64,000 bases of DNA from Squalus acanthias. Taxonomy: Eukaryota. The stretch is taken from positions 83,454,001 to 83,518,000 of the forward strand of contig CM059432.1 of NCBI GenBank assembly GCA_030390025.1, given 5' to 3'. The notes beneath the pieces are model-generated. The model had not been told where the DNA came from. It made no database searches and saw nothing but the letters and a program-made list of their open reading frames with translations. Each line of letters opens with the position of its first letter. The first letter of the stretch is position 1. Both the position numbers and the translations under genes were made by a program. Below, in pieces: positions 24,745-57,341 of this stretch.

Positions 24745-27700
24745 CATAGCAAGGAGACAGAGGAAAGCGTGTCAGGAAGGGACATAAGGTATGGAGTAAA
24801 AGGTAAAGTGTTAAAAAAGGAAAAAGCAGGAACTAAATGTCACAAAACATATTTGAAAGTTCTTTATCTGAATGCACGTAGCATTCGTAACAAAATGGAC
24901 GAGTTAACGGCAAAAATAACTACGTATGGGTATGATCTTGTGGCCATTACAGAAACATGGCTGCAGGGTGACAACGACTGGGAATTAAATATGCCAGGGT
25001 ATTTAACAATCAGGAAGGACAGGCAGGAAGGAAGGGGAGGTGGGGTGGCTATGTTAATAAAGGAAGGAATCACTGTAATACAGAGAAATGATATTGGGTC
25101 AAAGGATCAGGACAATGAAACAGTTTGGGTGGAGATAAGGAATAATAAGGGGGGGGAAAAACACTAGTGGGAGTAGTATATAGGCCTCCTAATAGTTGCA
25201 ACTCATTAATCAGGAAATAGTTGGGGCATGTAATAAGGGAACAGCTATAATTATGGGGGATTTTAACTATCATATTAACTGGACAAATCAAATTGGGCAG
25301 GGCAGCCTTGAGGAAGAGTTTATTGAGTGTATTAGGGATGGATTTCTTGAGCAGTATGTAACTGATCCTACAAGGGGGCAAGCAACCTTGGACCTGGTCC
25401 TGTGTAATGAGTCAGGATTAATTAATAATGTCCTAGTTAAGGATCCCCTTGGAATGAGTGACCATAACATGGTTGAATTCCATATCCAATTAGAGGGTGA
25501 GAAGGTTGGTTCTCAAACAAGCGTACTGAGCTTGAATAAAGGAGACTATGATGGTATGAGAGCGGAATTGATTAAAGTGGACTGGGAAAATAGATTAAAG
25601 GGTAAGACGGTACATGAGCAGTGGTGTTCATTTAAGGAGTTATTTTACAACTTTCAAAAAAAATATATTCCACTGAGGAAAAAAGGGTGTAAAAGAAATG
25701 ACAGCCATCCGTGGCTAAGTAAAGAAATTAAGGATAGTATCAGACTAAAAACAAGGACGTATAAGGTAGCCAAACTTAGTGGGAGGATAGAAGATTGGGA
25801 AGTCTTCAAAAGACAGCAAAAAGTAACTAAAGGATTGATTAAAAAAGGGAAGATAGATTATGAAAATAAATTAGCAAAAAATATAAAAACAGATAGCAAG
25901 AGTTTCTATAGTTATATAAAAAGAAAAAGGGTGGTTAAGGCAAACGTAGGTCCCTTAGAGGATGAGACCAGGAAATTAATGGTGGGAAACATGGAGATGG
26001 CAAAAATGCTGAACAAATATTTTGTTTCAGTCTTTACGGTAGAGGACACTAAGAATATCCCAACACTGGACAAACAGGGGGCTCTAGGGGGGGAGGAGCT
26101 AAATACGATTAAAATCACTAAGGAATTGGTACTCAGTAAAATAATGGGACTCAAGGCGGATAAATCCCCTGGACCTGATGGCTTACATCCTAGGGTCTTG
26201 AGGGAAGTGGCAGTAGGGATTGTGGATGCTTTGGTAATAATTTTCCAAAATTCCCTGGACTCAGCAAAGGTCCCGGCAGATTGGAAAACTGCTAATGTAA
26301 CACCCTTATTTAAAAAGGGTAGTAGGCAGAAGGCTGGAAACTATAGACCAGTTAGCCTAACATCTGTGGTGGGTAAAATTCTGGAGTCTATTATTAAGGA
26401 GACAGTAACGGAACATTTAGATAAACATAATTTAATAGGACAAAGTCAGCATGGCTTTATGAAGGGGAAGTCATGTCTGACAAATTTGCTTGAGTTGTTT
26501 GAGGACATAACGTACAGGGTGGATAAAGGGGAACCAGTGGACGTAGTGTATTTAGACTTCCAGAAGGCATTCGACAAGGTGCCACATAAAAGATTATTGC
26601 TCAAGATAAAAAATCACTGGATTGGGGGTAATATTCTGGCATGGGTGGAGGATTGGTTATCTAACAGGAAGCAGAGAGTTGGGATAAATGGTTCATTCTC
26701 GGACTGGCAACCAGTAGCCAGTGGTGTTCCGCAGGGGTCGGTGCTGGGTCCCCAACTCTTTACAATCTATATTAACGATTTGGAGGAGGGGACCGAGTGT
26801 AACATATCAAAGTTTGCAGATGATACAAAGATGGGAGGGAAAGTAGAAGGTGAGGAAGACATAAAAAACCTACAAGGGGATATAGACAGGCTGGGTGAGT
26901 GGGCGGAGATTTGGCAGATGCAATACAATATTGGAAAATGTGAGGTTATGCACTTTGGCAGGAAAAATCAGAGAGCAAGTTATTATCTTAATGGCGAGAA
27001 ACTGGAAAGTACTGCAGTACAAAGGGATCTGGGGGTCCTAGTGCAAGAAAATCAAAAAGTTAGTATGCAGGTGCAGCAGGTGATCAAGAAGGCCAACGGA
27101 ATGTTGGCTTTTATTGCTAGGGGGATAGATTATAAAAACAGGGAGGTATTGCTGCAGTTATATAAGGTATTGGTGAGACCGCACCTGGAATACTGCATAC
27201 AGTTTTGGTGTCCATACTTAAGAAAAGACATACTTGCTCTCGAGGCAGTACAAAGAAGGTTCACTCGGTTAATCCCGGGGATGAGGGGGTGGACATATGA
27301 GGAGAGATTGAGTAGATTGGGACTCTACTCATTGGAGTTCAGAAGAATGAGAGGCGATCTTATTGAAACATAAGATTGTGACGGGGCTTGATCGGGTGGA
27401 TGCGGTAAGGATGTTCCCAAGGATGGGTGAAACTAGAACTAGGGGGCATAATCTTAGAATAAGGGGCTGCTCTTTCAAAACTGAGATGAGGAGAAACTTC
27501 TTCACTCAGAGGGTAGTAGGTCTGTGGAATTTGCTGCCCCAGGAAGCTGTGGAAGCTACATCATTAAATAAATTTAAAACAGAAATAGACAGTTTCCTAG
27601 AAGTAAAGGGAATTAGGGGTTACGGGGAGCGGGCAGGAAATTGGACATGAGGCTGAGTTCGGATCGGTCAAGGCCCTGTGGGTGGCGGAGCGGGCCCAGG

Positions 27701-30988: not shown

Positions 30989-32025
30989 GGGCTGCTTGAG
31001 GTTGTCCTGCAAGGCCGCTGAAAGTCAGCAGCCTTCCACAAGCCATTCTGCAGCCACTGGGGTAGCACTTCGTAGAAGCACTAGGACAGGCAAAGGCACA
31101 CGGAAAATAGGCATTAAGGGGATGCACAAGAGTGATTAGTTGACTTTGTTATAAAATATTGCATGGATATATGGATAAAGTTTGATTGGAAAGTTTGCTT
31201 TGTGGTGGCTTTTATTTCAGTATTGTGGCCAAGAGGATGCTGTGATGGTCTGGAACAAAGGGATGATAAGGTGTGTGACTGTTGTACAATGCAGTTTTTG
31301 GGTTGTGTTCAGTGGAACTGTAGTCGAATGAGGCGATCGCGGACTGCTCGGCCAGAGACAGAAAGTACTGGTTGCCTCCTCCCTTCCTCCTGCTCCTCCT
31401 CTTCCTCTTCCTCCTTCTCCTCTTCCTCTTTCTTCCCTCTGCGAGCAGCTTGTCCTCTTCTTTGATGCCTCTCCTCCATCTCCTTGTCATGCTGCAGACC
31501 AAGGGGGATGGCAACTACAACACTCATGACTGGGAGCAAGTGGTCTGACCAGAACCCTTGAAGTCAGAACCAAGACTTTCTCCATTTGCAGCATCACTCC
31601 CTGTCACCTCACCAACTTTAAACAACTCTGGAAAGCACTTCTAGAAACTTACACAGAGCCAGTAGAAATTAATTAACAACTAACCTGAGAGTGATTGCTG
31701 ATCCCTTTAAATATCGCTGGGGGGGGGGATCTTCCTGCTGCTGAACACGTGTTCAGCTGTGCGAGGTTAAGACAGGGTGTTAGCTCCAGCGTTGAGGATG
31801 AATTTGGCAGCGCTGGCATTAAATCAGCATTGCATGCTGATTGACATCACGATCTGCCAACTCTACATACTTCCGGAGCACGCTCCTAATGCTCGCCCTG
31901 ACCAAAATGGCGTCCGGCGCGGCCCACACCAGAAGCGTGCGCGCGTGGCGTGGACGCCATTTTCAACACAAAACGGCACCCGTGGCGCTGAAAACTCATG
32001 CACTACCGAGCCGAATTTCTAGCCG
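30989..32025 (-). mobile_element. Truncated transposase-deleted Harbinger (same family as 54325-57341, opposite orientation)
   Basis: 3' end of Myb-like gene (+, 30989-31139), intergenic polyA region, in-frame N/C-terminal transposase fusion (31309-31527, -), promoter motifs, terminus cgaatttctagccg. Confidence 0.8.
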
Positions 32026-35467: not shown

Positions 35468-36890
35468 GTGACTCCCTCCATATGCTTATGGAGGGAGTCA
35501 CAGCACACAGGGAGGTCCTCTTCCCTTCCTATGGGTGGAAGAGACCTCCTCAGGAGATCAACACAGCCTGGTTGCACATTGCAGAGGAGGGCACAAGCAG
35601 GGATGTTGTCAGGAGGACCAGGCTGCAGTGCTGCAAACGATTCAATGATCTCAGTAGATCACAAAACAGTACAAAGCCACACTCAACCTCATCCTGCTGT
35701 GCTTCTCATCACATCCCCATCACTCTGCCTTCCCTACCCTACTCCTGCACATCCTTACTCACACCAACTTACCTTGCACCTCCACCAATCCCTCTCTATC
35801 TACATTATCACATCCTCATCTCACTAGCCACCCCTCACACTCACCCTCATCCTAGTCCAATCATACCAACTAACAACACACAAGGGTAGGCACTTGGGTG
35901 TTTTATGCAATATTCATGTAAAGTTTCTGTTAATGTGGTGTCAAACATTGAAACCATTATTTTCAACATTTTGCGTTCTTGGACAGATTTGTGTGCACCT
36001 TTGGAAGTGGCTTAGTGAGTTGCAGTGAATGGTGAGACATAACGGTACCTCCCGCAATGGTGATGAGTGTGAAAGGAATGGCTTTGGCATTGTAGGGATG
36101 CTTTATGGTGTTGGTGTGGGGTGGTGCCAACCTGGCGCATCATGTGGCAGCATCAAGTGAAGTAAATCTGGCCATGGTGAGGCCATCTCTGGCCTCCTGG
36201 GCAGCAATGTGGTCAGGTGATGATGCCCTGTGTCCTGTGCAGCATCAGTTGATTGCGGAGAAGGTTGGTGTTGTTGTTGGTGCTGCTGGTGTGCCTGGTG
36301 CTGCTGGTGTTGGGGCTGATTGTGGTGGGATTCTGAGGACCAAGGTGAGAGAGTATAAAGGGCACCCATGCTGATGGAATAGATGGCAGGTGAAGTAGAG
36401 ATGACAGAAGCGATCTGTCAATGGTGGGAGAGGTAATGAGGTGAGACTGGATGGAGACTTGTGTAAAGACTTGCAGCATCCTGAATCTGTAGTGGAAATG
36501 CAGTTTAGAGAAGCTAGTGGTTAAGGGAACATTTCTCAATCAGCTGAAAGCTTTGACTTGACATTTGAAGCTGTCAACTCATCAGCTGATTCAATGGCCA
36601 CTGACCTCCCGCCTCAGCTTCACAGACGAGGTTTAGGCACAGCAGGAAACCGGTGGGCGACCTGTCAAATCTAAAAAGCTGGGAAAGAAACCATCGATAA
36701 GTGTCTGTAAACAAGCCACTAATGATTTTAATTGCCTCCCCCGCCACTGCCTGTCGGGTCGCTCAGCGCTGGCAGACCCGACATCGGGTAAGTCCAGTGT
36801 GCACGTTTTGACAGCGGGTTCCTGACCCGCTGTCAATAATTTTAAATTTAACAGCTGACCCGCCACCTGAGCGCTGGCAAAATTCCAACC
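35468..36890. mobile_element. Internally deleted Harbinger derivative with Myb/SANT exon-1 remnant (+) and possible transposase 5' remnant (-)
   Basis: ORF 35482: REVLFP...AWLHIAEE...RRTRLQCCKRFNDLSR, homologous to PRTHVQCRKKFNDLTR of the intact element; terminus aaattccaacc. Confidence 0.7.
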
Positions 36891-37076: not shown

Positions 37077-38240
37077 TTACCCCAGCACCTATGTTTACGG
37101 ATCCAGACAATTCTACCTGGGCATATTAGAGGAGACCTGTCTTTGCCACTTCTGGTTCACAATGGAAGGTGTCACAGAGTTATGCCATTTCCTCTACAGT
37201 GACTTTACCACAGGGACTGGTCTTCCTATAGATGTAAAAGTCACCATTGTTTTAAGCTTTCATACGATCAGATCCTTCCAAGGCACTTAAGGAGACACGT
37301 GTTAGATCAGCCTGTCTGCTGACCACAGATGAATCAAGCAAATGCTTGACACAATGGCTGCTTCTGTGCTCACCAGCCGTGATTTGACACCCATTCATTT
37401 TAATGGACAGAAAACAATCACAGGCTAGCGAATGCAGAAACAGTAAATCCGATCAATGTTTTCAAGGGGCAAATCTTCATCACTTTCTCTGTGGAAAGGA
37501 AGCTTCAGCTGGAGATGGCACAGAACTTTTACCAGGTGACTGAGCTCCCAAAATAGATGGCACCCGTGTGGGTATCATGGCTCCTCACATCCACCACACA
37601 GCCTACATGAACAGAAAAGGCTTTCATTCCATTGATGCTCAGATGGTGTTGGACCACAGGAATAAGATTACGCAAGACAATGCCCAATATCCTGGAAGCA
37701 CCCATGATGTGCTCAGTAGGTGGCAGTTCCCATTGCTTGGATTATTTGAAGGTTCAGATAGACTGGACGGATGGCTGCTTGGAGACCAGAATACCTTCTT
37801 CAGCCCTGACAGATAACTTCCTGAGAAACCCATGAACACCAGCAGACATAAATACAATGAGACACACACCTCAGCCATAATTACTGCTAAGCACACTATT
37901 GGTGTGCTGAAACAAAGGGGGTGAATTTCCATGGGGGTTCTCTCCCTTGTCTGCAGTAACTTCAGTGGAAGAACCATGGAAACATGGGAAAACGGTGTAA
38001 CCACCGTTTGTGACATTTTGTGAGGGTTTCTGCGGCTCTTCTGCTGAAGTTATGGTGGATGAGCGGGAGGACCCCCACAGAAATTCACTGCCAAAGATTC
38101 TGCAGTTTGGCTAGGCACCCAGTGAAGCTCTCAGAATCATCATGGCCTGCTGAATACAGTAGAACGAGCAGGAGACTCACGGTCCACCGTTAGCAGAGGA
38201 GGAAGGATGGCAAAGAGGAGGATGAAATGGAGAAAGCATA
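37077..38240 (+). pseudogene. Fossil Harbinger (HARBI1-like) transposase with frameshifts and inserted MITEs
   Basis: EETCLCHFWFTMEGVTELCH, IDGTRV, NRKGFHSIDAQMVLDH, YPGSTHD, GWLLGD and IGVLKQ|RF all align with the 42099-43259 protein. Confidence 0.85.
37917..38092. mobile_element. 176-bp palindromic MITE with AAA target-site duplication
   Basis: TIRs gggggtgaatttcc / gaaattcactgcc; aaa at 37914-37916 and 38093-38095; removal restores CTG AAA CAA AGA TTC (LKQRF). Confidence 0.85.
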
Positions 38241-39163
38241 AGTGCAGCCAGTAATTCCCAAATCTGGTTCATGCACACTATTCCTGATCACTTAATCACC
38301 AAGTGATGTCCACATAAACTCCATGCTATACATTCCATATTACATCATCCTGTCGCTTATTGATCCATTTCCCAAAAATAAACTCTCCAGACTAAGAAGA
38401 AATAAAGTCGACAATATTTATTAATTGATATGTACAAGTTTTCTACTGCCTAGCACCATGCTTCCCTTCGTGATCCCAAGATTTTGATCTTCCAGAATTC
38501 CCTAGATTCTAGAATGGTCCCCTTGAATTGAAAGGTAGCAAATGTAATGCCACTGTTCAAGAAAGGAGAGTGAGAGAAATAGGCCAGTTAGCCTGACATC
38601 AGTAGTAGGGAAGATGCTAGAATCTATTATTAAGGACATGGTAACAGGGCACTTGGAAAATCACAATATGATTAGGCAGAATCAACACGCTTTTATGAAA
38701 GGGAAATCCCGCTTGACAAATCTATTAGAGCTTTTTGAGGGAGTGACTAACAGGGTAGATAAGGGGGAACCAGTGGATGTAGTATATTTGGATTTTCAGA
38801 AGGCATTTGATAAGGTGCCATTCAAGAGGTTGTTACACAAGATTAGGACTCATGGAATTGGAGGTAATATATTAGCATGGATTGAGGATTGGTTAATGGA
38901 CAGAAAACAGAGAGTAGGAATAAATGGGTCATTTTTGGGATGGCAGGGTGTAACTAGTAGAGTGCCGCAAGGATCAGTGCTTGGGCCTCAACTATTTACA
39001 GTCTATATTACTGGCTTAGATGATGGGACCGAGTGCAATATATCCAAGTTTGCTGACAATACAAAGCTAGGTGTGAAAGTAGGCTGTGAGGAGGACGTAA
39101 AGAGGCTGCAAAGGGACACAGAGTGGTTAAGTGATTGGGCAAGAAGCTGGCAGATGGAATATA

Positions 39164-39916
39164 GGCCCAGAAATTCGCCTCTCCGGCTTGCCGCGGGGGT
39201 AAGGATCGCGCGCGCACTTACCTACCGCGCCTGCCGTTGTGTTTTGGGCCCACGGGAACTTCAGCTCCTGGGCCTGCTCCAAGTGCCGGCACGCAGTGTT
39301 TGCGTGTCTCAGGGGCGCAGTTAGTGCGATGCGTCCCCTGGGATCACGTGGGCCATGGAGAGCCAATGGCAGCAGACCATCTTTCATTCATAGAACCTGT
39401 CAAATCTGTGAATTGAAATCGGCCCTAAAAGAACAGCTAAACTTAAAATAAATTAAAAAAAAACCCATCACATTTATAAAATAACTATAGTTAAATAAAT
39501 TAACCACTTTAAACAAAAATTTAAATTTTTGAAAAAATTAAAAGACTTTTTAAAAGTGATAAAAATAAACTTACCTTTCTTTAAAGTATCTAAAAAAGAT
39601 AAACCTGTTGAAATTTTTTTTAAATTATACTTAATTAACCACTTACCTTGTTGAAAACGGGTCTTGCGCCTCCTTTTCATAAGCGTAGGTTCTTCACTAC
39701 TTAACCTCCTGTAGAAACCTGAAAAAAAATCTAAGTTTGCTGCGTGCGCGCAGCCTCTACCGCGCACGCGGTTCACCTAGGAACTGCCCCCTTCACCAGA
39801 CCAGAAGTTCCGGTTTCCCGCGCATGCGCAGTGCATGCAGGAAACCAGCACTTCGGGACGTCTTACGGGTAAGTACGCACTGTGTACTCACCCGGGAACG
39901 GCCGAATTTTTGGCCC
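39164..39916. mobile_element. 753-bp non-autonomous Harbinger-type MITE, ATA TSD
   Basis: Termini ggcccagaaattcg / cgaatttttggccc; ata at 39161-39163 and 39917-39919; empty site atggaatATAatgtggg is CR1 sequence; CpG-rich arms, AT-rich core. Confidence 0.9.
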
Positions 39917-40197
39917 ATAATGTGGGCAAGTGTGAAATTATCCACTTTAGTAGGAAGAATGGAAAAACAGAATATTTTTTAAAAGGTGAGAGATAGTAAA
40001 TGTTGGTATTCAGAGGGATTTGGGTGTCCTTGTACATGAATCACTGAAAGCAAATGGTATGTTAGCCTTTATTGCAAGGGAGTTGGAGTACAAAAATAAG
40101 GCAGTCTTGCTGATATATAGCGCTTTGGGGAGACCACACCTGGAGTACTGTGTACAGTTTTGGCCTCCTTACCTAAGGAAGGATATACTTGCCTTGG

Positions 40198-41386
40198 ACT
40201 TTCAAAAGGCTTTCGATAAGGTCCCGCATAAGAGATTAGCGTGTAAAGTTAAGGCACATGGGATTGGGGGCAAGGTATTGACTTGGATAGAGAACTGGTT
40301 GGCGGACAGAAAGCAGAGAGTAGGAATTAATGGGTCTTTTTCCGAGTGGCAAGCAGTGACTAGTGGGGTACCGCAGGGATCGGTCCTTGGATCCCAGCTA
40401 TTCACAATATACATTAATGATCTAGATAAGGGAACTAAATGTAATATCTCCAAGTTTGCAGATGACACAAAGCTGGGTGGGAGTGTGTGCTGTGAGGAGG
40501 GTACCGAGAAACTCCAGGATGATTTGGACAGGTTGGGTGAGTGGGCAGAAGCGTGGCAGATGCAATATAACGTGGATAAATGCGAGGTTATCCACTTTGG
40601 TGTCAAAAACAGAAAGGCAGGCTATTATCTGAATGGCAATAGATTGGGAGAAGGGGAAGTGCAACGAGACCTGGGTGTCCTTGTGCACCAGTCGCTGAAG
40701 GTAAGCATGCAGGTGCAGCAGACGGTGAAGAAGGCAAATGGTATGTTGGCCTTCATAGCGAAAGGGTTTGAGTATAGGAACAGGGATGTCCTGCTGCAGT
40801 TGTACAGGGCCTTGGTGAGACCACACCTTGAGTACTGTGTGCAGTTTTGGTTGCCTTATCTGAGGAAGGATGTTCTTGCCATGGAAGGAGTTCAGCGAAG
40901 ATTCACAAGGCTGATACCTGGGATGGCAGGAATGACATATGAGGAGAGATTGGGTCGATTGGGCTTATACTCGCTGGAGTATAGAAGAATGAGAGGGGAT
41001 CTCGTCGAAACATATAAAATTCTGACAGGTCTGGAAAAACTAGATGCAGGAAGAATGTTCCCGATGGTCGGAGAGTCCAGAACCAGGGGTCATAATCTAA
41101 GGATAAGGGGTAAGCCATTTAGGACAGAAATGAGGAAGAATTTCTTCACCCAGAGAGTGGTGAACCTGTGGAATTCTCTACCACAGAAGGTAGTTGAGGC
41201 CAAGTCATTAAATATATTCAAGAATGAGTTAGATATATTTCTTAAAGCTAAAGGTATCAAGGGATATGGGGAGAAGGCAGGTACAGGGTACTGAGTTTGG
41301 ATGATCAGCCATGATCTCATCGAATGGCAGAGCAGGCTCGAGGGGCCGAATGGCCTACTCCTGCTCCTATCTTCTATGTTTCTATG
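40198..41386 (+). mobile_element. Younger 5'-truncated CR1 inserted into the older CR1
   Basis: Uninterrupted RT C-half (DFQKAFDKV...FADDTK...KAGTGY stop) plus 3' UTR hairpin and (ttctatgt) tail; host resumes at 41387. Confidence 0.9.
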
Positions 41387-41754
41387 AGGCTGTGCAACGA
41401 AGGTTCACTCGATTGATTCCTGGGATGAGAGGGCTGTCTATGAGCAGAGATTGAGTAGACTAGGCCTATATGCTCTGAAGTTTAGAAGAATGAGAGATGA
41501 TCTCATTGAAATGAATAAAATTCTTAGCGGGCTTGACGCTGAGAGGCTATTTCCCCTGGCTGGGGAGTCTAGAACTAGGAGTCATAGGGGTAAAAATTCA
41601 GTTGGTTGCGCCTCCCGTTAGCGCCTTAAATGGGCGCTAATGGGGCGTTAAGGCGCTAACGCCCGGGCGCAGCGCTGTTTGCGCCGCTCGAGAACTTAAC
41701 TTAAGATTGTGCGGCGGCGCTAAAACTTACCGCTGCGACCACCTGCGCGCGCAG

Positions 41755-41903
41755 ATTGTGACGTAATTCCGTGGTGCAACGCCCTTGGGGCGCCCCGGAG
41801 CGGAAATTGAGTGGCACCCCCTGCCTTACCGCCTGGCGCTTCCAACGACCGGAAGACTGGAACGTTATCAATCGGTGTGGGGCTGGGGGGGGCGCTATTT
41901 AAA
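41755..41903 (+). promoter_or_regulatory. Putative transposase promoter (CRE-like TGACGT plus TATA-like TATTTAAA)
   Basis: gattgtgacgtaat near 41755 and tatttaaa 41896-41903; equivalent motifs in related elements near 54426/54564 (+) and 31839/31706 (-). Confidence 0.5.
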
Positions 41904-42098
41904 GGGGGCCTCTTCCTGTCTTTTTCTGTGGTCGACATTTATGCACCACTCGTTCTGAGAGAGAGAGAGAGATTCGGAGAGAGAGAGAGAGAGACTTCTA
42001 CATTGACTCAACGCTTTGTGAGGTAGTTTTGCCTAGTTCATCCTAACTTTGCTGCTACTTTCGTTGCTGTACCTCATTACTTTTCTGGCAAAGAGAAT

Positions 42099-43259
42099 AT
42101 GGGGGCTGCAATGATTGGGGGCGTCGTCCTGCTCCAGCTCAATCGGAGGAGAGTGAGACGCAGACAGAGAGTGGCAATGATGGCCAGACGGAGGAGGGCC
42201 ATCAGGCGCATGTACAGGAGAGCTTACCCTCCCAGGGTATATCGTGAACAGCTCTCCTACATCCACATGTCCGAGGAGCTGTGTTTGCGAAGGCTGCGAT
42301 TCAGCAAGGAGGTGGTCACTGAGCTCTGCCACCTGCTGCAGCCAGATCTGCAGCCTCAGCTGAGGTCCAGGACGTCTCTGTCGGTGGCAGTGAAGGTCAC
42401 AGTGGCTTTGAACTTCTACGCCACTGGCTCATTCCAAGCTGCTGTTGGGGACCTCGCCAATATCTCCCAGTTTGCGGTGCATCGCTGCATCCGGCAGGTC
42501 ACCAATGCCCTCTTCACAAGGAGACGAGACTTCATCTCCTTCCCTATGACCCCAGACAAGCAGCATGACCGTGCTATGGGCTTTGCGAGGGTAGCGGGCT
42601 TCCCCATGGTGCAGGGCGCCATTGACTGCACGCATGTGGCTTTGCGTGCTCCGCGAGAGAATGCAGAGGAGTTCCGGAACAGAAAGGGGTTCCATTCCTT
42701 GAATGTGCAGTTGGTCTGTGACCACAGACAGGTGATTCTCGCTGTCAATGCCCACTATCCGGGCAGCTGCCACGATGCTTTCATCCTGCGCCAGAGTACT
42801 GTGGCAGAAATTTTCGAGGCACCGCATCAGCCAGTTGGTTGGCTTCTGGGGGACAAGGGGTACGCATTGAGCACCTGGCTGATGACACCGCTCCGTGCGC
42901 CAAACACCCCTGCTGAGCTGCGGTACCAGGAAAGCCAACAAGCAACCAGGAACATTATTGAGCGCACAATCGGCGTGCTCAAACAACGATTCCGCTGTCT
43001 GGACCATTCCGGAGGAGCCCTGCAGTACTCGCCTGAGCAAGTTTCCAAATTCGTAGTGGTGTGCTGCATGTTGCACAACATGGCAATCCTCAGGACGCAG
43101 CCAATGCCACCAGGCCTTGCAGCACCACAAGAGGAGGAGGAGGAAGAGGAGGAACAGGCCGAGGACGATGATCAGCAGCAGCACCAAGGCAGGAGGGCGG
43201 CCCACAATGGTCAAACTGCAAGGGCCGTCCGTCAACGACTAATAGCAAGCCGCTTCTAG
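42099..43259 (+). CDS. Harbinger DDE transposase (HARBI1-like, DDE_Tnp_4 type), 386 aa
   Basis: ATG-to-TAG ORF with GAIDCTH, NRKGFHSLNVQ, YPGSCHDA, LGDKGY, RNIIERTIGVLKQRF, CCMLHN; catalytic acidic residues present. Confidence 0.95.
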   Translation: MGAAMIGGVVLLQLNRRRVRRRQRVAMMARRRRAIRRMYRRAYPPRVYREQLSYIHMSEELCLRRLRFSKEVVTELCHLLQPDLQPQLRSRTSLSVAVKVTVALNFYATGSFQAAVGDLANISQFAVHRCIRQVTNALFTRRRDFISFPMTPDKQHDRAMGFARVAGFPMVQGAIDCTHVALRAPRENAEEFRNRKGFHSLNVQLVCDHRQVILAVNAHYPGSCHDAFILRQSTVAEIFEAPHQPVGWLLGDKGYALSTWLMTPLRAPNTPAELRYQESQQATRNIIERTIGVLKQRFRCLDHSGGALQYSPEQVSKFVVVCCMLHNMAILRTQPMPPGLAAPQEEEEEEEEQAEDDDQQQHQGRRAAHNGQTARAVRQRLIASRF

Positions 43260-43370
43260 GGCCCCTGCCAGTGCTGCAAACACGAATCAACCCAGCACGC
43301 AACCCCTAAGCCGGCCAAGGCACCAATAATTCCAACCACCAGCCATGTATATTTTGAATACAGAAACTTA

Positions 43371-43424
43371 TTTATTGTACAAACTCTGTGTGTGTCAATT
43401 CCTCATGACAAACTCAGAAATAAA
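43371..43424. terminator. Opposed polyadenylation signals of the two Harbinger genes
   Basis: tttatt 43371-43376 (AATAAA on -) and aataaa 43419-43424 (+), between the two stop codons. Confidence 0.55.
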
Positions 43425-43551
43425 CACAAAAAAACAGTCAATAACATAACTGGTTCTCACAACCTGGAGATAATGTCCAAAACACTAAACAAAAGTTGGG
43501 CCATGAACCTCGGCCTTTAATAAAAAAATGACCAGCATTTTGGCACACCTC

Positions 43552-44618
43552 CTACTTTTTGCCCTTCGAGGGTGATCTCCTTCCCTTGCGCACTTCCCCC
43601 CTTCTAACCCTACTGCTCCTCCGTAATGGGACCTCAGTGGCTGCAGCAAGGCTGGTGGAAGGCTGCTGCTTGTCAGACCCTGACACTGCAGATGCCCCTG
43701 AAGGACGGCCTCGACCACTTCTGGGCCTGGAGGGCCCGGCTGCAGACTGCACCAACTCTGCATGGGCGGCAGCAGTCTGTCCTACAGGCGGTGGCAAGTG
43801 CAGTGGAGAAGTGACAGTGTTGGCAGCAGGAATGCTGTCATCGTGAGAGAGGACAGCAACTCCCTGCTCGCCCGACACACTGGCACTCCCACGGGGCAGC
43901 ACTTCAGCATCCGGAGCAATTTGCCGGAGAACAGATTGCTGGCCTGCAGCGGCGCGGTGACAGCCCCGGGGACATGTGCACGAACCATCGAGGATGGCAG
44001 CAGTCAGTGCTCGCGTGGCCTCAATCTGAGTCTGCATGAGAGCAGTCTCAGATGGATTCCTGGCAGCCAGTGACTGAATTGCAGCAGTAAGCTTTAGTGT
44101 GGCATCCGCCTGTGCTACAGCGAAGTGCTCCACACTCCTTGCCAGTGCCTCAATGCATTCGGGCACCCTTCCCACTGCACCCATGAGCTCAGTGTGCATG
44201 CCCACCGCCTGGCTGTTCATTTCTGCAATCAGCCGCTCCTCCTCTGCGTCCATTGCATTAGGAGTGTCTGGCATACTCTCCCTCTGGGGAGAAGGCTCCC
44301 GTTCTTCCCTCCCCCCCCCATGGCGTGGCTGCAGCCCGCTGGGTCCTGGAACTTCACCATCATCAGCCCCTTCCCCCCTGCTCCCCCGTTCTTCCCTCCC
44401 CCCGCAATGGCGTTGCTGCAGCCCGCTGGGTCCTGGAACTTCACCATCATCAGCCCCTTCCCCCCTGCTCCCCTCCGGGGAAGGCGTGTTCCCAGTGTGG
44501 CCATGGGCTTCCTCGGGAGAGGGTGGCACTGATGCTCCGGCTTCCTCTTCCTCCTCAGCTGCAGCATCACTCCCAGTGGCAGCTTCAGGGACCATCTCCT
44601 CAGCTGGTGAATCACCAT
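43552..44618 (-). CDS. Harbinger Myb/SANT-like protein, exon 3 (acidic/low-complexity and helical region, basic C-terminus); spliced product 488 aa
   Basis: Acceptor cctgctttcag|AT; the phase-1 join is in frame with ORF 43552-44595; TAG at 43552-43554. Confidence 0.85.
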
Positions 44619-44777
44619 CTGAAAGCAGGGAGGTACAAGAGTGGCTTTAGCGTGAGGACAGGGTGGCAGTAAGGGAGGAATAAGTGCAGCGAGTTAGCAA
44701 GTTGGATTGAAAGTGTCAAAGGCTGGTATTGTGAGGGACAAGTGGAAGGACAGAGGACAAAAAGGTGATGACCTTAC

Positions 44778-44940
44778 CATTGCTGTCCACAACGGGGTCG
44801 GCGTCTCCAGTGGCGACGGGACCGATCACCCGGCTTGCCACAATCCTGTGGACGCGCTCCTCCAGATCGCTGAGGGGTTGCAGCTGAAGCCGCCCTCCAC
44901 CCGTCCGTTGCTGCTGTCTCCGATTATGAGCCAGCTTAGC
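44778..44940 (-). CDS. Harbinger Myb/SANT-like protein, exon 2 (163 nt)
   Basis: Acceptor ttttcttgcag|GCT; AKLAHNRRQQQRTGGG...LSDLEERV; donor G|GTAAGG (phase 1). Confidence 0.88.
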
Positions 44941-44967
44941 CTGCAAGAAAAAGGACAGCATCTGAGT

Positions 44968-45130
44968 CAATATACAGCCATGGTCTTGCCTGATGTGCCT
45001 CCCATAGGTGAATAGCCCTTACAATATGCAGCCATGGTCTTGCCTGATGTGCCTCCCATAGGTGAATAGCCCTTACAATATGCAGCCATGGTCTTGCCTG
45101 ATGTGCCTCCCATAGGTGAATAGCCCTTAC
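44968..45130. repeat. 3 x 54-bp tandem repeat inside intron 1 of the Myb-like gene
   Basis: gccatggtcttgcctgatgtgcctcccataggtgaatagcccttac at 44977, 45031 and 45085. Confidence 0.95.
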
Positions 45131-45278
45131 TGTATGCAAAGTGTGGAATGTGTGTGTGTGTTTGATGAAAGGGCCATAGGTGTTGCATGAGTGTTGTGCT
45201 TTGGGGTTTTAAGACCCTCTGGCCATAGAGTGAGGTTGAGATGGAGGGATGGAGAGGTATTGAGAAAAAGCCACTCAC

Positions 45279-45515
45279 CCTGACGACCCGAGTGAGGTCA
45301 TTGAACTTTTTGCGGCACTGGACATGGGTCCTGGGCACCATGCTCCTGGAGGAGACGCTCTGAGCCACCTCCCTCCACACTCTTCTGAACTCGCGTGGCA
45401 AAGGCCTCCTGCCACTCTCCGGGAACAGCATGCATCGTCTGCGCTCCACTGCGTCAACCAGAGCATCCAAGGCCCGCTCGGTGAAGCGATGAGCGCGTTC
45501 TCTCACCCTCTCCAT
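45279..45515 (-). CDS. Harbinger Myb/SANT-like (trihelix) DNA-binding protein, exon 1 (79 codons)
   Basis: MERVRERAHRFTERALDALV...WREVAQSV...PRTHVQCRKKFNDLTRVVR then donor AGG|GTGAGT (phase 0). Confidence 0.9.
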
Positions 45516-45945
45516 GCTTGGCAGCAAAATGGATTACAGGTCTCTCCAGGCTGAGATTCAAGGCTGCAATGAGCAGGGTGTGGCTGGGGAGCAAGTGGCC
45601 CCCCCCGCTTTAAGAAGTGTCCGGCGCCAGTGTGTCTGTGTTCCCTCGCTAACTGGCAGCAGCTGCGCTGCGCTCGTGCGCTGAGGTCGCGCCTCACTCC
45701 TAGGCCTTTGTGCCTTAAGAGAGGTGTGCAGCGCCTAATTTAGCGCTCCACTCACCTCCCGGGGCGGTAAAAGTGAAGTTTCCTGTCAGTGCCGATAATT
45801 AGCGCCAGGCGCTAATATTTGCGCGCGGACGATATTTGCGCCCCAAATGGGGCGCGACCTAATTTCTACCCCATAGTCTCAGGATAAGGGGTTGGCCATT
45901 TTGGATTGAGATGAGGAGAAATTTCTTTACTCAGAGGATTGTGAA

Positions 45946-46119
45946 CAATGTTCCCTTTAAGTTGCATGGCTGCCCGGCAGCGCAGCGCTCTAGGGGTCCC
46001 AAGCAGCCGGTGAGCTGGCTTTTAAATTGAAGAAATCGCGCATTTGTGGAATTTTGAATGTGCCTCGTAGCCTGTTAAAGGGGCCATGCAGCCCAAAAAA
46101 AAAATTACAGGGAACATTG
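45946..46119. mobile_element. 174-bp hAT-type MITE
   Basis: Perfect 11-bp TIR caatgttccct / agggaacattg; 8-bp TSD attgtgaa (45938-45945) / cttgtgaa (46120-46127), one mismatch. Confidence 0.85.
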
Positions 46120-46817
46120 CTTGTGAATCTTTGGAATTCTCTACCCCAGAGCTGTGGATGCTTAGTCAATGAGTATGTTCAAGACTGAGATCGATAGATT
46201 TTTGGGCACTAAAGGAATCAAGGGATATGGGGATCGGGCGGGAAAGTGGAGTTGATGTAGAAGTTCAGCCATGATCTTATTGACTGCGGAGCAGGCTCGA
46301 GGGGCCGCAGGGGCTATTCCTGCTCCTATTTCCTAAGTTCTTACGTTCTTATAAAGTGTGCTTTTACTACTTCCTGACCTAATGCTATATTTAGGGGCTC
46401 CGAGTGTGAGCAACAAGTTTGATAGCAAGCGTCTTGTTCATTTATTGCAATTGCTGTACGTAAATTAAAAAAAGTGGCAATTCCCTTATTCTCAAAGGAT
46501 TTATGTGATAAAGACCCAGATTTTCCTGCGCTATTGTAATGGATCATCTACATTGTAGGCGTGAAAGAAAGAGGAAGTTATGGAGTAAGTGACTTATGGT
46601 ATTACTTACACCACATCATATTTTCCTGTGCTGCTCCGCCATTACCGTCACCGAAAAATATATTCCTATTGAAATTACGCTCGCCGAAAACAGTGAGAAA
46701 TTAATTATCACAGCTCCACGCCATTAAAATCAATAGCGATCGAGATTTTCCTGGATTTTCACCCCGCTGTCACTTAGACTCAAAATTAATGACAGTGGTG
46801 GCCTGGCAGCGACATGG

Positions 46818-50583: not shown

Positions 50584-53500
50584 TTGAGTTGAGTAGAGTG
50601 GAATTCAGCTGAGTGGAGTAGAGTTAAGCTGAGTGGAGTTGAGCTGAGTGGAGTGGAGTTGAGCTGAGTTGAGTGGAGTTGAGTGGAGCTGAGTTGAGTG
50701 GAGTTGAGTGGAATTGAGTTGAGTGGAGTTGAGTGGAGTTGAGTGGAATTGAGTGGAGTTGAGTGGAGTTGAGTTGAGTGGAATTGAGTTGAGTTGAATG
50801 GAATTGAATTGAATTGAGTTGAGTGGAGTTGAGTTAAGTGGAGCTGAGTTGAGTTGAGTGGAGTTGAGTAGAATTGAGTTGAGTTGAGTTGAGTTGAGTG
50901 GAATTGAGTTGAGTTGAGTGGAGTTGAGTGGAATTGAGTTGAGTGGAATTGAGTGGAGTTGAGTGGAGTTGAGTGGAATTGAGTTGAGTTGAGTGGAGTT
51001 AAGTTGAGTGGAGTGGAGTGGAGTGGAGTGGAATTGAGTTGAATTGAGTTGAGTGGAGTTGAGTGGAGCTGAGTGGATTGGAGTGGATTGGAGTGGAGTT
51101 GAGTTGAGTTGAGTGGAGTTGAGTTGAGTGGAGTTAAGTTGAGTGGAGTGGAGTTGAGTGGAGTTGAGTGGAGTTGAGTGGAGTTGAGTTGAGTGGAGTG
51201 GAGTGGAGTGGAATTGAGTTGAGTTGAGTTGAGTTGAGTTGAGTGGAGTTGAGTGGAGTTGAGTGGAGCTGAGTGGATTGGAGTGGAGTTGAGTTGAGTG
51301 GAGTGGAGTGGAGTTGAGTTGAGTGGAGTTGAGTGGAGTGGAGTTGAGTGGAGTGGAGTTGAATGGAGTTGAGCTGAGTGGAGTGGAGTGGAGTTGAGTG
51401 GAGTGGAGTGGAGTTGAGTGGAATTGAGTTGAGTTGAGTGGAGTTGAGTGGAGTTGAGTTGAGTGGAGTGGAGTTGAGTGGAGTGGAGTGGAGTGGAGTG
51501 GAATTGAGTTGAGTTGAGTGGAGTTAAGTTGAGTGGAGTGGAGTGGAGTGGAGTGTTTTGGAGTGGAGTTGAGTGGAATTGAGTTGAGTTGAGTGGAGTT
51601 GAGTGGAATTGAGTTGAGTGGAGTTGAGTGGAGTGGAGTTGAGTTGAGTGGAGTTGAGTGGAGTGGAGTTGAGTGGAGTTGAGCTGAGTGGAGTGGAGTG
51701 GAGTGGAGTGGAGTGGAGTTGAGTTGAGTTGAGTGGAATTGAGTTGAGTTGAGTGGAGTTGAGTGGAATTGAGTTGAGTTGAGTGGAGTGGAGTGGAGTG
51801 GAGTTGAGTTAAGTGGAGCTGAGTTGAGTTGAGTGGAGTGGAGTTGAGTAGAATTGAGTTGAGTTGAGTTGAGTGGAATTGAGTTGAGTTGAGTGGAGTT
51901 GAGTGGAATTGAGTTGAGTGGAATTGAGTTGAGTGGAGTTGAGTGGAATTGAGTTGAGTTGAGTGGAGTTAAGTTGAGTGGAGTTCGAGTGGAGTGGAGT
52001 GGAGTGGAGTTGAGTGGAATTGAGTTGAGTTGAGTGGAGTTGAGTGGAATTGAGTTGAGTGGAGTTGAGTGGAGCTGAGTGGATTGGAGTGGAGTTGAGT
52101 TGAGTTGAGTTGAGTGGAGTTGAGTTGAGTGGAGTTAAGTTGAGTGGAGTGGAGTGGAGTTGAGTGGAGTGGAGTGGAGTTGAGTTGAGTTGAGTTGAGT
52201 GGAGTGGAGTGGAGTGGAGTTGAGTTGAGTGGAGTTGAGTTGAGTTGAGTGGAGTTGAGTGGAATTGAGTTGAGTGGAGTTGAGTGGTGCTGAGTGGATT
52301 GGAGTGGAGTTGAGTTGAGTGGAGTGGAGTGGAGTTGAGTTGAGTGGAGTTGAGTGGAGTGGTGTGGAGTTGAGTGGAGTGGAGTTGAGTGGAGTTGAGC
52401 TGAGTGGAGTGGAGTGGAGTTGAGTTGAGTTGAGTGAATTGAGTTGAGTTGAGTGGAGTGGAGTGGAGTGGAGTGGAGTTGAGTGGAGTTGAGTTGAGTT
52501 GAGTGGAGTTGAGTGGAATTGAGTTGAGTGGAGTTGAGTGGAGTGGAGTTGAGTTGAGTGGAGTTGAGTGGAGTGGAGTTGAGTGGAGTTGAGCTGAGTG
52601 GAGTGGAGTGGAGTTGAGTGGAGTGGAGTGGAGTTGAGTTGAGTTGAGTGGAATTGAGTTGAGTTGAGTGGAGTTGAGTGGAATTGAGTTGAGTTGAGTG
52701 GAGTGGAGTGGAGTTGAGTTAAGTGGAGCTGAGTTGAGTTGAGTGGAGTGGAGTTGAGTAGAATTGAGTTGAGTTGAGTTGAGTGGAATTGAGTTGAGTT
52801 GAGTGGAGTTGAGTGGAATTGAGTTGAGTGGAATTGAGTTGAGTGGAGTTGAGTGGAATTGAGTTGAGTTGAGTGGAGTTAAGTTGAGTGGAGTTCGAGT
52901 GGAGTGGAGTGGAGTGGAGTTGAGTGGAATTGAGTTGAGTTGAGTGGAGTTGAGTGGAATTGAGTTGAGTGGAGTTGAGTGGAGCTGAGTGGATTGGAGT
53001 GGAGTTGAGTTGAGTTGAGTGGAGTTGAGTTGAGTGGAGTTAAGTTGAGTGGAGTGGAGTGGAGTGGAGTGGAGTGGAGTTGAGTTGAGTGGAGTGGAGT
53101 GGAGTGGAGTTGAGTTGAGTGGAGTTGAGTTGAGTTGAGTGGAGTTGAGTGGAATTGAGTTGAGTGGAGTTGAGTGGAGCTGAGTGGATTGGAGTGGAGT
53201 TGAGTTGAGTGGAGTGGAGTGGAGTTGAGTTGAGTGGAGTTGAGTGGAGTGGTGTGGAGTTGAGTGGAGTGGAGTTGAGTGGAGTTGAGCTGAGTGGAGT
53301 GGAGTGGAGTTGAGTTGAGTTGAGTGAATTGAGTTGAGTTGAGTGGAGTGGAGTGGAGTGGAGTGGAGTGGAGTTGAGTGGAGTTGAGTTGAGTTGAGTT
53401 GAGTTGAGTTGAGTGGAGTGGAGTTGAGTGGAGTGGAGTGGAGTTGAGTGGAATTGAGTTGAGTTGAGTGGAGCTGAGTGGATTGGAGTGGAGTTGAGTT

Positions 53501-54348
53501 GAGTGGAGTGGAGTGGAGTTGAGTTGAGTGGAGTTGAGTGGAGTGGAGTTGAGTGGAGTTGAGCTGAGTGGAGTTGAGTGGAGTGGAGTGGAGTTGAGTT
53601 GAGTTGAGTGGAATTGAGTTGAGTTGAGTGGAGTTGAGTGGAATTGAGTTGAGTTGAGTGGAGTGGAGTGGAGTGGAGTTGAGTGGAGTGGAGTGGAGTT
53701 GAGTGGAGTTGAGCTGAGTTGAGTTGAGTGTGGAGTTGAGTGGAGTTGAGTGGAGTTGAGTGGAGTGGGGTGGAGTGGGGTGGAGTGGAGTTGAGCTGAG
53801 TGGAGTGGAGTGGAGTTGAGTGGAGTTGAGTGGAGTGGAGTGGAGTGGGGTGGAGTGGAGTTGAGCTGAGTGGAGTGGAGTGGAGTTGAGTTGAGTGGAG
53901 TGGAGTTGAGTTGAGTGGAGTTGAGCTGAGTTGAGTTGAGTGTGGAGTTGAGTGGAGTTGAGTGGAGTGGAGTCGAGCTGAGTTGAGTGGAGTTGAGTGG
54001 AGTGGAGTGGAGTGGAGTTGAGTAGAGTTGAGTGGAGTTGAGTGGAATGGAGTGGAGTTGAGTTGAGTGGAATTCAGTTGAGTGGAGTTGAGTTGAGTGG
54101 AGTTGAGTGGAGTTGAGTTGAGTTGAGTGGAGTTGAGTTGAGTTGAGTGGAGTTGAGTGGAGTTGAGTTGAGTTGAGTTGAGTGGAGTTGAGTGGAGTGG
54201 AGTTGAGTTGAGTTGAGTTGAGTGGAATTCAGTTGAGTGGAGTTGAGTTGAGTGTAGTTGAGGGGAGTTGAGTTGAGTTGAGTGGAGTTGCGTTGAGCTA
54301 AGTGGAGCTGAGTGGAGTTGAGTTGAGTGGAATTCAGTTGAGTAGAGT
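50584..54348 (+). repeat. 3.8-kb pentanucleotide satellite (GAGTG/GAGTT, with GAATT and GAGCT variants)
   Basis: Direct reading; rare variants recur at ~0.9-kb spacing. Confidence 0.97.
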
Positions 54349-57341
54349 CGCAGTGGTCCCCATTTGGGGCAGTTCGATAGAGCAGCTGTTGCCTGCGTTC
54401 GGCAGAAGAATGCTAATGAGGCAAATTGTGACGTCAATCAGTGTGTAATGCTGAATTGACACACGACCTGCTATTTTGGACATCGCCATTCAACTGTACG
54501 CCCTCTCTAAAGCACGCACAGCTGAACCTGCTTTCAGCTGCATAATGGAGCCCCCACCAGTGCTATGTAAAGGGACACATGCAACTTTGAGAAAAGTTGC
54601 TTTTTGTTCAGGTATTGTTTCCTGTACAGTTTATTTGAGTTGTGGCTTGTTGTAAGACATTTAAAAAGTTGTTGAAGTGTGCCGGGAGTTCAGGGAGTGC
54701 TGCTGGATGTTTGCAAAGCTTTGGCTCTTAAAGGAAGGCCTTTGAGAAGATCACTTGCTCCCAGTCCTGGGTGTTCTAGTTGCAGTCCCCCTTGGGCTGC
54801 AGCATGACATGGAGATGGAGCAGAGGCAGCAAAGGGGACAAGCTGCTCGCAGAGGGAGGAGGAGGAGGAGAAGAGGAAGAAGCAGTAGAGGAGGAAGCGG
54901 AAGAGGAGGAGGAGGAAGAGAGGAGGAGGAAGCAGAAGGAAGGAGGAAACCCAGACAGTCCCTTTCTGGCTAGAATATCCGGGATCGAATCATTTGCCTG
55001 CGGTACCAGTGACCACAACCCCAATTCCTCATTCAATATTAGTCCCACACCTTCTGACCATCACAGCGTCCTCTAGGCCACAATACTGAAATAAAAGCCA
55101 CCGCAAAGCAAACTTTCCAATCCAACTTTTTCCATATATGCATCCAATATTACATCAAAGAATCAACTAATCACCCTTGTGCATTCCCTTAGTGACTGTC
55201 TTGCGTGTACCTTTGCCTATCCTCGTGCTGCTATGCAATGCTACCCCAGTGCCTGCAGCACGGCTGGTGGAAGGCTGCTGACTTTCAGTGGGGGAGACTG
55301 CAGATGGCCTTGCAGGACAACCTTGAGGAGCTCTGGGCCTAGTATGCCCGGCTTCGGACTCCACCACCTCGGCATGGGCGGCAGCAGTCTGGGCTGGTTG
55401 ACAGGCAACAGCAAGGGCATTGGTGGAGTGGCAGTGGTGGAAGGATGAATGCTGTCGTCCCGCGAGAGGACAGTAGGGTCGTCCTCCACAGATCCATTAT
55501 CACTCCCACGGGGCAGCACCTCAGCAATCCTAGCAATCTGCTGGAGTACAGACTGCTGGACTGCTGTGACACCCTGCAAGCCCTTTTCAACACTCGTAAA
55601 CCCAGCCATGATGGCAGCAGTCTGAGCTTGCATGAATTCAGTCTGAGCTTCCATTGCAGCACTCAGACGTTGGGTGGATACTGCTTGTGCTGCAATAGAA
55701 GCAGAGACTTTGGCCATCAGACGCTGCATGATGGTTGGATCCACAAGTGCGGTAATGGATCTGCCCACCCCTTCCACGCTGGAAAGGATGGGCTCCACGC
55801 TCTGCGCAAAGCCCTGTGCAAGGTTGAAGCCAGACTCCTCCATGCTCCTTGACATTGCATTCAGGCTTTCTGGCAGGCCTCCCAATGCACCAAGCATTTC
55901 ATTGTGCATACCCATCAGCGTTCTTCTGTAGGCCGCCCCATCGAAGTCTTCATCTGAGTCCTGAGCAGTAGAACTCATGTGCAACCTCGCCGTCTGGGGA
56001 GCTGGCAGCAGCCCACTCGTGTCCAGTGTCTCACCGTGTGCAGATCCCGCATCGAACCTATCCTCTAAAGTACGCGCATTGTCAATATCTGAGCTGGTGG
56101 CTGGGAGTTGAAATCGAGTGATGGTGTTTCTTTTTCTTCTTCACTCTCCTCTCCCTCTTCTTGTTCAACCACTGACTGGGCAGGCTGGATTTCTTGGGTG
56201 TCTGAAATGATAAAGGCACATGGTGTGGTGAGGGGAGAGGGGGAAAGCAAGAGGTACATGGTTGCACCATGTTTAGATTGTAAATTAGAAGAGATTGTGG
56301 GATGGGGGGAAGTGGGATGTAAGAAGGAGGATAATGTATGAGGTTACCAGCATCTTGTATTCTTTCAGATCCGCCACTGGCCATGGGCTCAGCCATGTCC
56401 CTGCCAAGAATGGCCAGCACCGTCTCCTCCATGGGGGTGAGGTGATGCAGGCGAGCCTGTCCCCCACCGATTAAATTCTGCTGGTGCTGGTTATGCGCCA
56501 CCTTTTCCTGCAAGAGAAAGGGAAGTGTGTTAGTGAGTGTGGTGTAATGTGTTTGGGTGATGTGGCTGCCATGGTTGAATAACTGACCGTGTTCAGTCTG
56601 TGAGATGTGCATGTGAGGCTTGCAGCAGTGGTAAGTGTATGAGGGTGAGGTGAATCTAGGAATGTGAGGTGTGCCTCGTGTTTGGTAGATTGTTGATAGG
56701 TGAGCGATGGGGGTGCGGTGCATTGAGCAGTGTGTGAGGCTAGTGGTGCAGTTGGTAAGAGATGGCTTTTAAAGATGCATTCACTGACCTTGACCACTTG
56801 TGTGAGGTCATTAAACTTCTTTCGGCACTGGAACCACGTCCTGGGGGCGACACTGGCAGTGACCATCTCGGCGATCTGGTCTCACATCCTGCTTACAGTG
56901 TTTCTGGATGGCCTTCTGGCCCCCTGTGGGTAGAGGACCTCTCTTCGAGTATTTGCCCCCTGCACAAAGGCCTCAAAGGCTGCGTCCCGAGACCCTGGGT
57001 GCCGCTTCCCTGGCCCGTTGGGCCATTTTGGTTAGTGCTGAAGCAGTTTTAAAATTTTTGCTCACCGGAAGGCAGCTCACCTTTAAGAGTTGCAGACTGC
57101 CTTTAAGAGGCACAGGCTAGGTTGAAGTAAAGCTAGCCTCGCACGAACATCGCAAACTTTGGCCCCCTACTGAGCACACAGCCAGTCAGCAGCACATTCT
57201 GCGTTGGGCTGTGCGCTGCTTTCATGCGAAGTAGCAGGCAGCATGAATTTTACGTGCTGTCTGAATTCCTTTCAACGGGTGCGGGCAGATCGCGCATCGT
57301 GATCCCCGCACCTGTTTTTGTGCCTAATCCAATTTCACCCC
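54325..57341 (+). mobile_element. Transposase-deleted Harbinger retaining a full-length (pseudogenised) Myb-like gene
   Basis: Right TIR aatttcacccc (57331-57341); fused transposase N- and C-terminal remnants near 54770-55010; 3-exon Myb-like gene on the - strand; left end merges with the satellite. Confidence 0.85.
55167..57026 (-). pseudogene. Myb/SANT-like Harbinger gene, exons 57026-56789, 56507-56348, 56201-55167; frameshifts and an in-frame TGA
   Basis: MAQRAREAAPR...PRTWFQCRKKFNDLTQVVK | EKVAHN...GGG...LTPMEE | ...GMHNEMLGAL...; same intron phases (0, 1) as the intact gene. Confidence 0.85.

Follow-up and report, generated by a model that had tools for sequence, protein, structure and literature searches.

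The DNA analysed here, referred to as the window, is a 64,000-nt stretch of the genome of the shark Squalus acanthias (assembly GCA_030390025.1, contig CM059432.1, positions 83,454,001 to 83,518,000, forward strand), and all positions given below are those of the window. The transposon at 41587-45872 (4,286 nt) is, on balance, best explained as an intact, full-length member of a two-gene Harbinger family with many copies, which moved in waves up to the youngest interval resolvable by sequence and which probably remains mobile in the germ line of the shark. The best candidate for a mobile lineage is the youngest clade of the family. This clade is a separate branch, far younger than the wave of the copy in the window (hereafter the window copy).

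Structure and coding capacity of the element

All coordinates claimed in the initial annotation were rechecked in the sequence and are correct. The annotation had described a complete transposon with terminal inverted repeats (TIRs) and an exact ATA target-site duplication (TSD), and this was reproduced: ATA triplets at 41584-41586 and 45873-45875 enclose the element, the TIRs of which lie at 41587-41598 (plus strand) and 45861-45872 (minus strand). The TIRs are short and imperfect, with 11 of the 12 terminal bases complementary (13 of 16 over a longer span). The ends are alike in the 28 nearest copies and the mismatch is common to them; the asymmetry is the family norm. A length of 12 nt falls inside the range of 5-1042 bp given for PIF/Harbinger elements in PMC4482050 and is shorter than the 25-50 bp called usual in PMC9179366. 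A 7-nt motif (TAGCGCC-like, in either orientation) was counted ten times in a left subterminal cluster (41606-41897), four times in a right one (45763-45842) and not once within the 3,726-nt interior; because the motif was picked from the element's own ends, this count is not an independent test. By analogy with a characterised relative (see below), the repeats may be Myb-binding sites.

The transposase open reading frame (ORF; 42099-43259, plus strand) was confirmed as open over 386 amino acids, with a match to Pfam DDE_Tnp_4 (E 5e-38) and a complete triad (D176/D252/E288). Nearly all of its best relatives in a protein search came from sharks and rays (top identity 65-66%), and in a quick protein tree it fell among shark and ray proteins, without a strongly supported small clade. 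A search of solved structures with the transposase gave no credible match (best E 0.013). Among P0001-P0120, many gene models of sharks and rays carry the name 'putative nuclease HARBI1'; they are probably transposases of transposons that were mistaken for host genes.

The convergent Myb-like gene on the minus strand was likewise found as predicted: exons 1 (45515-45279), 2 (44940-44778) and 3 (44618-43552) join through GT-AG introns into a stop-free protein of 488 amino acids. Exon 1 encodes a Myb/SANT-like DNA-binding domain (Myb_DNA-bind_5, E 8.6e-10); left unspliced, it would extend to ~182 amino acids, and a search for longer proteins with it gave a single match. Splicing of intron 1 (44941-45278, 338 nt) is predicted from the sequence and supported by homology, because the sawshark protein P0006 aligns gap-free across the junction from exon 1 into exon 2 (residues 5-113, 47% identity). 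This intron contains a 54-nt tandem repeat (44968-45138 in the window copy), the varying number of which gives it a length of 230-608 nt among copies; intron 2 (44619-44777) measures 159 nt in 113 of 113 aligned genomic copies. Exon 3 forms a low-complexity, fast-changing C-terminal part with a basic tail and has no Pfam match. Comparison of copies revealed an in-frame 87-nt tandem duplication (29 amino acids) within it at 44298-44473, the unit being single in older waves and present two or three times in young waves. Between the two genes, in the region 43371-43524, AATAAA motifs lie at 43371 (minus strand) and at 43419 and 43519 (plus strand); if they are used, the ends of both predicted transcripts would overlap.

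Putative transcripts were sought in sequencing runs. The stretch is contained in 20 of the 24 runs listed (seven organism labels and unlabelled rows); none of these is recorded as RNA, and four were guessed to be RNA. In the four putative RNA runs, contigs cover both genes, and in three of them (X17, X18 and X19; two studies, two organism labels) a joint 44618-44778 corresponds exactly to removal of intron 2. The joint of intron 1 was absent among the 15 joints listed of a total of 73. Putative RNA contigs also join host sequence across the element, which interrupts the 3' fragment of a long interspersed nuclear element (LINE), presumably of CR1 type. Both halves of this fragment (41381-41583 and 45876-46345, plus strand) align in order to a LINE at 39990-41385 that has an RVT_1 match.

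The two proteins would act together, in analogy to the zebrafish element Harbinger3_DR: the product of the spliced Myb-like gene would attach to the subterminal repeats and would carry the transposase to the nucleus and onto the 12-nt ends; the transposase would then cut the element out and integrate it at a palindromic site of ~15 bp, duplicating the central 3 bp. For Harbinger3_DR itself, the Myb protein was described to bind the ends and the transposase and to import the latter, both proteins being needed, and a 3-bp duplication arises when the excised element inserts (PMC2836001).

Copy number, target sites and waves

Copies were counted as exact 30-mer matches in the genome (3.7 Gb). Genome-wide, 7,545 matches were obtained with the left end, 2,819 with the transposase and 1,838 with Myb exon 1, the 30-mer of which covers wave-variable sites; reversed-pattern controls gave 0 exact matches. 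The check for near-identical copies in the source assembly, set beforehand, returned many. A position-ordered sample was taken from the first 60 transposase matches on one contig (C1), six of which were dropped (end missing, short or chimeric). Among the remaining 54 copies, the transposase was open in 41, the Myb-like gene in 29 and both in 25, and 23 of the latter also carried the three catalytic motifs. Scaled to the whole genome, this corresponds to roughly a thousand copies with both genes open, the family filling 0.3% or more of the sequence, an estimate that rests on one contig and on the exact-match condition and thus leans towards young copies. Cut-and-paste elements gain copies through repair or through the timing of replication.

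Left-end matches without a transposase match (n=20) comprised 14 non-autonomous elements (726-895 nt), five older long copies (92-95%) and one copy cut off by the limits of the retrieved sequence; non-autonomous elements are likely to account for most of the 7,545 left-end matches. Two non-autonomous families sharing the ends were recognised (among L092-L110, and one element beside L019), with lengths of ~893 nt and ~730 nt. The ~893-nt family is 90% (left) and 84% (right) identical to the present element, at mutual distances of 0.8-2.5% with one outlier. In sequencing runs X9-X12, X15 and X16, which carry five more organism labels (C-G), 0.53-0.58 of the 31-letter words of the element are present. 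This suggests ~98% identity and either close relatives that share older waves or transfer between species.

A single 3-bp match is a 1-in-64 event by chance, but the duplication recurs across the family. From 110 loci (ten without an end in the fetched stretch; L019 and L026 mis-bounded there; L109, retrieved on the wrong side, dropped), 100 copies with both ends were evaluated; 87 carried their own 3-bp duplication and 13 were mismatched.

Target preference was determined from 155 distinct sites, which are not fully independent because some belong to repeat hot spots. At 152 of them, A or T occupies the centre, and the duplicated triplets include ATA/TAT (42), TWA (34), CWG (4) and TNA (35). 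A at position -5 occurs together with T at +5 in 131 sites, and flanking C and G are both present in 60. The target is a palindromic site of ~15 bp, roughly ARASWC-NWN-GWSTYT, with the central 3 bp duplicated. Compared with the Harbinger3_DR target consensus (PMC3016246), its flanks match at 7.5 of 12 positions, as against 3.6 for shuffled sequences and 4.0 for the best of 500 shuffles; the 3-bp core is looser than in Harbinger3_DR. One position of one host repeat had received insertions, in both orientations, at 12 of 182 loci (L003, L011, L018, L020, L053, L065, L120, L149, L165, L177, L189 and L200), and 13 more loci lie in a short tandem tail motif; such places are target hot spots within other repeats. 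Segmental duplication was rejected as the source of shared flanks, most cases being independent insertions at the same repeat site in both orientations; local duplication looks likely for three pairs (L042/L043, L096/L098 and L163/L164).

The copies fall into successive waves. Diagnostic changes build up in a ladder-like manner: an old class, 2.4-3.2% distant from the window copy, is followed by a middle class and then by the young copies. The window copy is placed in a star-like group that comprises 12 of the sampled copies. It lies 11 substitutions off the majority of this group; each protein is altered at one position (residue 18 of the transposase, residue 205 of the Myb-like protein), and the subterminal motifs are unchanged. 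Both frames are kept in 25 of its 28 nearest full-length copies; no identical twin was found among the copies examined. What had been annotated as a young, potentially mobile element is indeed a complete two-gene copy of a young family, but it comes from an earlier wave and is one of about a thousand open copies. It may be competent, but does not represent the current source lineage.

Selection was assessed with variants common to at least five of 111 copies. The transposase core showed 15 synonymous and 11 non-synonymous shared variants (ratio of non-synonymous to synonymous polymorphism, pN/pS, 0.23), Myb residues 1-133 showed 9 and 3 (0.11), and the Myb tail (43552-44618) showed 5 and 29 (1.99), clustered near residues 309-342; single variants in the Myb-like gene were neutral (0.84-1.04). 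On these sequence counts, the transposase core and the Myb N-terminus look selected across waves, and the fast change of the tail between waves may reflect relaxed or positive selection, the data fitting either. The CpG dinucleotides, reported in the initial annotation as well retained, do have a higher observed/expected ratio in the element (0.56) than in the rest of the window (0.33-0.34), but other 2-kb bins reach 0.53-0.61. When the 28 nearest copies are compared, CpG transitions account for 78 of 226 variants, so that the copies decay like methylated DNA, and CpG retention was discarded as a sign of activity.

The youngest clade and probable present activity

In the ordered sample, two copies were zero substitutions apart. 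A search from one such copy returned a twin with exactly the same letters at a distance of 87 Mb, together with six copies that differ by 1-5 changes; every one of them has a TSD of its own. L084 and L111, which occupy unrelated sites, agree letter for letter throughout their 4,288 nt. The clade so defined is marked by a diagnostic 32-mer with 100 exact matches genome-wide; sites diagnostic of clades are 41770, 42491, 43409, 43428, 45309 and 45627. In all, 61 copies of the youngest clade were analysed (52 of 60 newly fetched, eight being dropped for a missing end, and nine others). A TSD is present in 58 and both frames are open in 50. Eight copies are the same as L084 wherever bases align; private substitutions average 1.8 per copy and are absent from 16 copies. 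Zero-change copies include L111, L152, L161, L168 and L175, and unique flanks are found, for example, at L114, L116 and L117; a derived genotype is represented by three substitution-identical copies (L170, L189 and L199). The private counts are over-dispersed relative to one burst (p 0.0013; 16 zero-change copies against 10 expected), and the ages of the copies are therefore spread. Compared with the two proteins of the window copy, those of the youngest clade differ at 2 and 5 residues. Older-wave allele tracts and mismatched TSDs were noted in L150, L164, L170, L179, L182, L185, L189 and L199; both features suggest that copies exchange sequence by recombination or conversion.

The strongest competing explanation, judged less probable and still to be taken seriously, is that the family recently became extinct or was fully silenced: its movement would have ceased long ago when counted in years, slow mutation alone having kept frames open and copies identical. 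Several observations weigh against present mobility in this sense. At the mutation rate of 7e-10 per base per generation published for another shark species (PMC10587355), one substitution per 4.3-kb copy is expected in ~240,000-330,000 generations (~3e5), so that identical copies need not be new and identity alone is no proof of present movement. Even the youngest clade averages the 1.8 private substitutions given above; CpG transitions make up 30 of its 110 private changes and point to germ-line methylation, in line with the CpG decay of the copies in general. In the oldest sampled class, both frames are still open in 8 of 19 copies. The nearest relative of the window copy among 113 aligned copies is 16 substitutions off, and whole-gene Fisher tests comparing shared with single variants did not reach significance (p 0.36 and 0.58). 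Finally, at 21 of the 40 variant sites listed (211 in total), the putative RNA contigs carry old-class alleles that are rare in the young class. The putative transcripts seen therefore come mostly from older waves; of the spliced junctions that the initial annotation proposed to look for, the one of intron 2 was seen in these putative RNA contigs.

Extinction or silencing is countered by the young end of the family, which shows no gap: the excess of copies without private change (16 of 61) over the number expected for a single burst, the nested genotypes each with identical copies, and a continuous succession of waves without a visible stop all argue for continued movement. It is very improbable that the identical copies were produced by gene conversion or by assembly polishing and not by recent transposition. 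Copies do recombine, as seen from the 13 mismatched TSDs in 100 copies and from a three-site older-allele tract in part of the youngest clade; substitution-identical copies nevertheless vary in tandem-repeat number (4,228-4,450 nt) and are located on several contigs with their own flanks and TSDs, matching in 58 of 61. A domesticated HARBI1/NAIF1-like host gene pair, brought to mind by the name 'putative nuclease HARBI1' of the database relatives, was refuted, since such genes are single-copy and without transposon ends, whereas the copies of this family number in the thousands, are dispersed and have transposon ends and TSDs; many of them are broken, and the element itself sits in a LINE fragment.

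The preferred reading thus remains a family that is probably still mobile. A more far-reaching version can be put forward only tentatively, namely that this is a naturally active vertebrate Harbinger, with the youngest clade transposing in the shark germ line now, with native genes that, in cultured cells, would set a marked element in motion without having to be rebuilt, and with a Harbinger3_DR-like site whose relaxed core lies outside the published TSD groups. Dispersed (near-)identical copies with intact genes, by which a naturally active transposon is recognised, were found for the youngest clade and not for the window copy, and the youngest clade is the best candidate for an assay.

Relation to known elements and significance

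On every feature tested (DDE triad, Myb/SANT gene, TIRs, 3-bp TSD and extended palindromic target), the element is a member of the PIF/Harbinger superfamily, and it fits no narrow group defined by TSDs. The TWA duplication of the PIF/Harbinger group in the narrow sense (PMC4482050) was observed at 34 of 155 sites. The CWG duplication of the NuwaI group was seen at 4 of 155, although TIRs of 12-61 bp starting with GGG and two ORFs with Myb/SANT, also typical of that group, are present. The C-TNA-G target of the NuwaII group is not the rule here either (TNA at 35 of 155 sites, C and G flanks at 60 of 155).

Compared by features, the zebrafish element Harbinger3_DR, listed as NuwaI-2_DRer with 4,204 nt, a 12-bp TIR, CWG and 293 copies (PMC4482050, supplement), resembles the present element in its length (~4.2 kb), 12-bp TIR, combination of DDE_Tnp_4 and Myb_DNA-bind_5, and palindromic 15-bp target with matching flanks; it differs in its need for consensus reconstruction, lower copy number (293), CWG duplication and shorter Myb protein (221 amino acids, here 488). 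NuwaII elements such as NuwaII-4_XTro share two ORFs with Myb/SANT, a TIR starting with GG and a preference for C and G beside the TSD (PMC4482050), but are defined by the TNA duplication. In the first catalytic block, a hand count gave 29 of 56 residues identical to NuwaII-4_XTro as against 20 of 56 to NuwaI-4_DRer. Intact, transcribed vertebrate Harbingers are already known from sea kraits, which limits novelty: Harbinger-Snek has 269 intact copies and RNA across both genes (PMC8437027). That family was horizontally acquired, occupies 8-12% of the genome and has few near-identical copies, whereas the present one accounts for at least ~0.3% of the genome, has its nearest proteins in other cartilaginous fishes and includes a clade of identical copies. 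The other shark and ray proteins named 'putative nuclease HARBI1' (45-66% identity) are gene models and not described element families; in the sawshark model P0006, Myb and transposase are fused, which implies the same strand, whereas the genes are convergent here. The rice elements Ping/Pong/mPing share the two-protein mechanism, the 3-bp TSD and associated miniature inverted-repeat elements, and differ in being plant elements with demonstrated natural activity and a 9-bp target preference; in 2010 they were called the sole naturally active members (PMC2836001).

Other Harbinger sequences in the window are remnants. A Myb-like remnant at 55226-56980 (minus strand; 36-62% protein identity to the 488-residue protein) has a broken exon 1; no transposase was found next to it, and a satellite starts at 54348 on that side. 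Older plus-strand remnants comprise a Myb exon (35473-35658, 40%) followed by transposase pieces (37114-37918, 41%), which would be in tandem and not convergent if the parts belong together, and a short extra match lies at 31018-31085. The window further contains two G-rich tandem arrays (10379-18978, ~270 units of 32-33 nt; 50586-54348, ~380 units of 10 nt), the long ORFs of which are repeat artefacts, and LINE reverse-transcriptase/endonuclease fragments at 979-1767, 21723-24204, 25196-27373, 38548-39324 and 39990-41294, one of them open over 725 amino acids.

In the portions of the literature available, 88 + 11 + 22 'potential active' two-ORF families are reported and the group is called absent from sharks (PMC4482050); none is recorded for the elephant shark, and checks of further cartilaginous fishes are asked for (PMC9179366). 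Papers on the whale shark and the grey reef shark list Harbingers in the repeat content (PMC8455134, PMC12498223), and in carp, PIF-Harbinger elements account for 9.1% of insertion polymorphisms (PMC13583293). Passages of PMC10288884 offered no information on animals. Neither a description of a shark Harbinger family nor an assay of a native animal Harbinger was found in the literature searched, mostly without subscription papers, and the only naturally active Harbingers named there are those of rice, a 2024 survey of 130 DNA transposons lying outside its scope.

The mechanism of vertebrate Harbingers has so far been derived from the rebuilt zebrafish element, and a native intact pair of genes would be a direct test system. 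With its defined 15-bp target preference, such a pair would also be a possible site-selective tool for gene delivery. Element-level detail is provided for a lineage from which Harbingers had been reported absent (PMC4482050) and in which they were later listed in repeat tables only. The ladder of waves and the roughly one thousand open copies document well the persistence of a cut-and-paste transposon with two genes in a slowly mutating genome.

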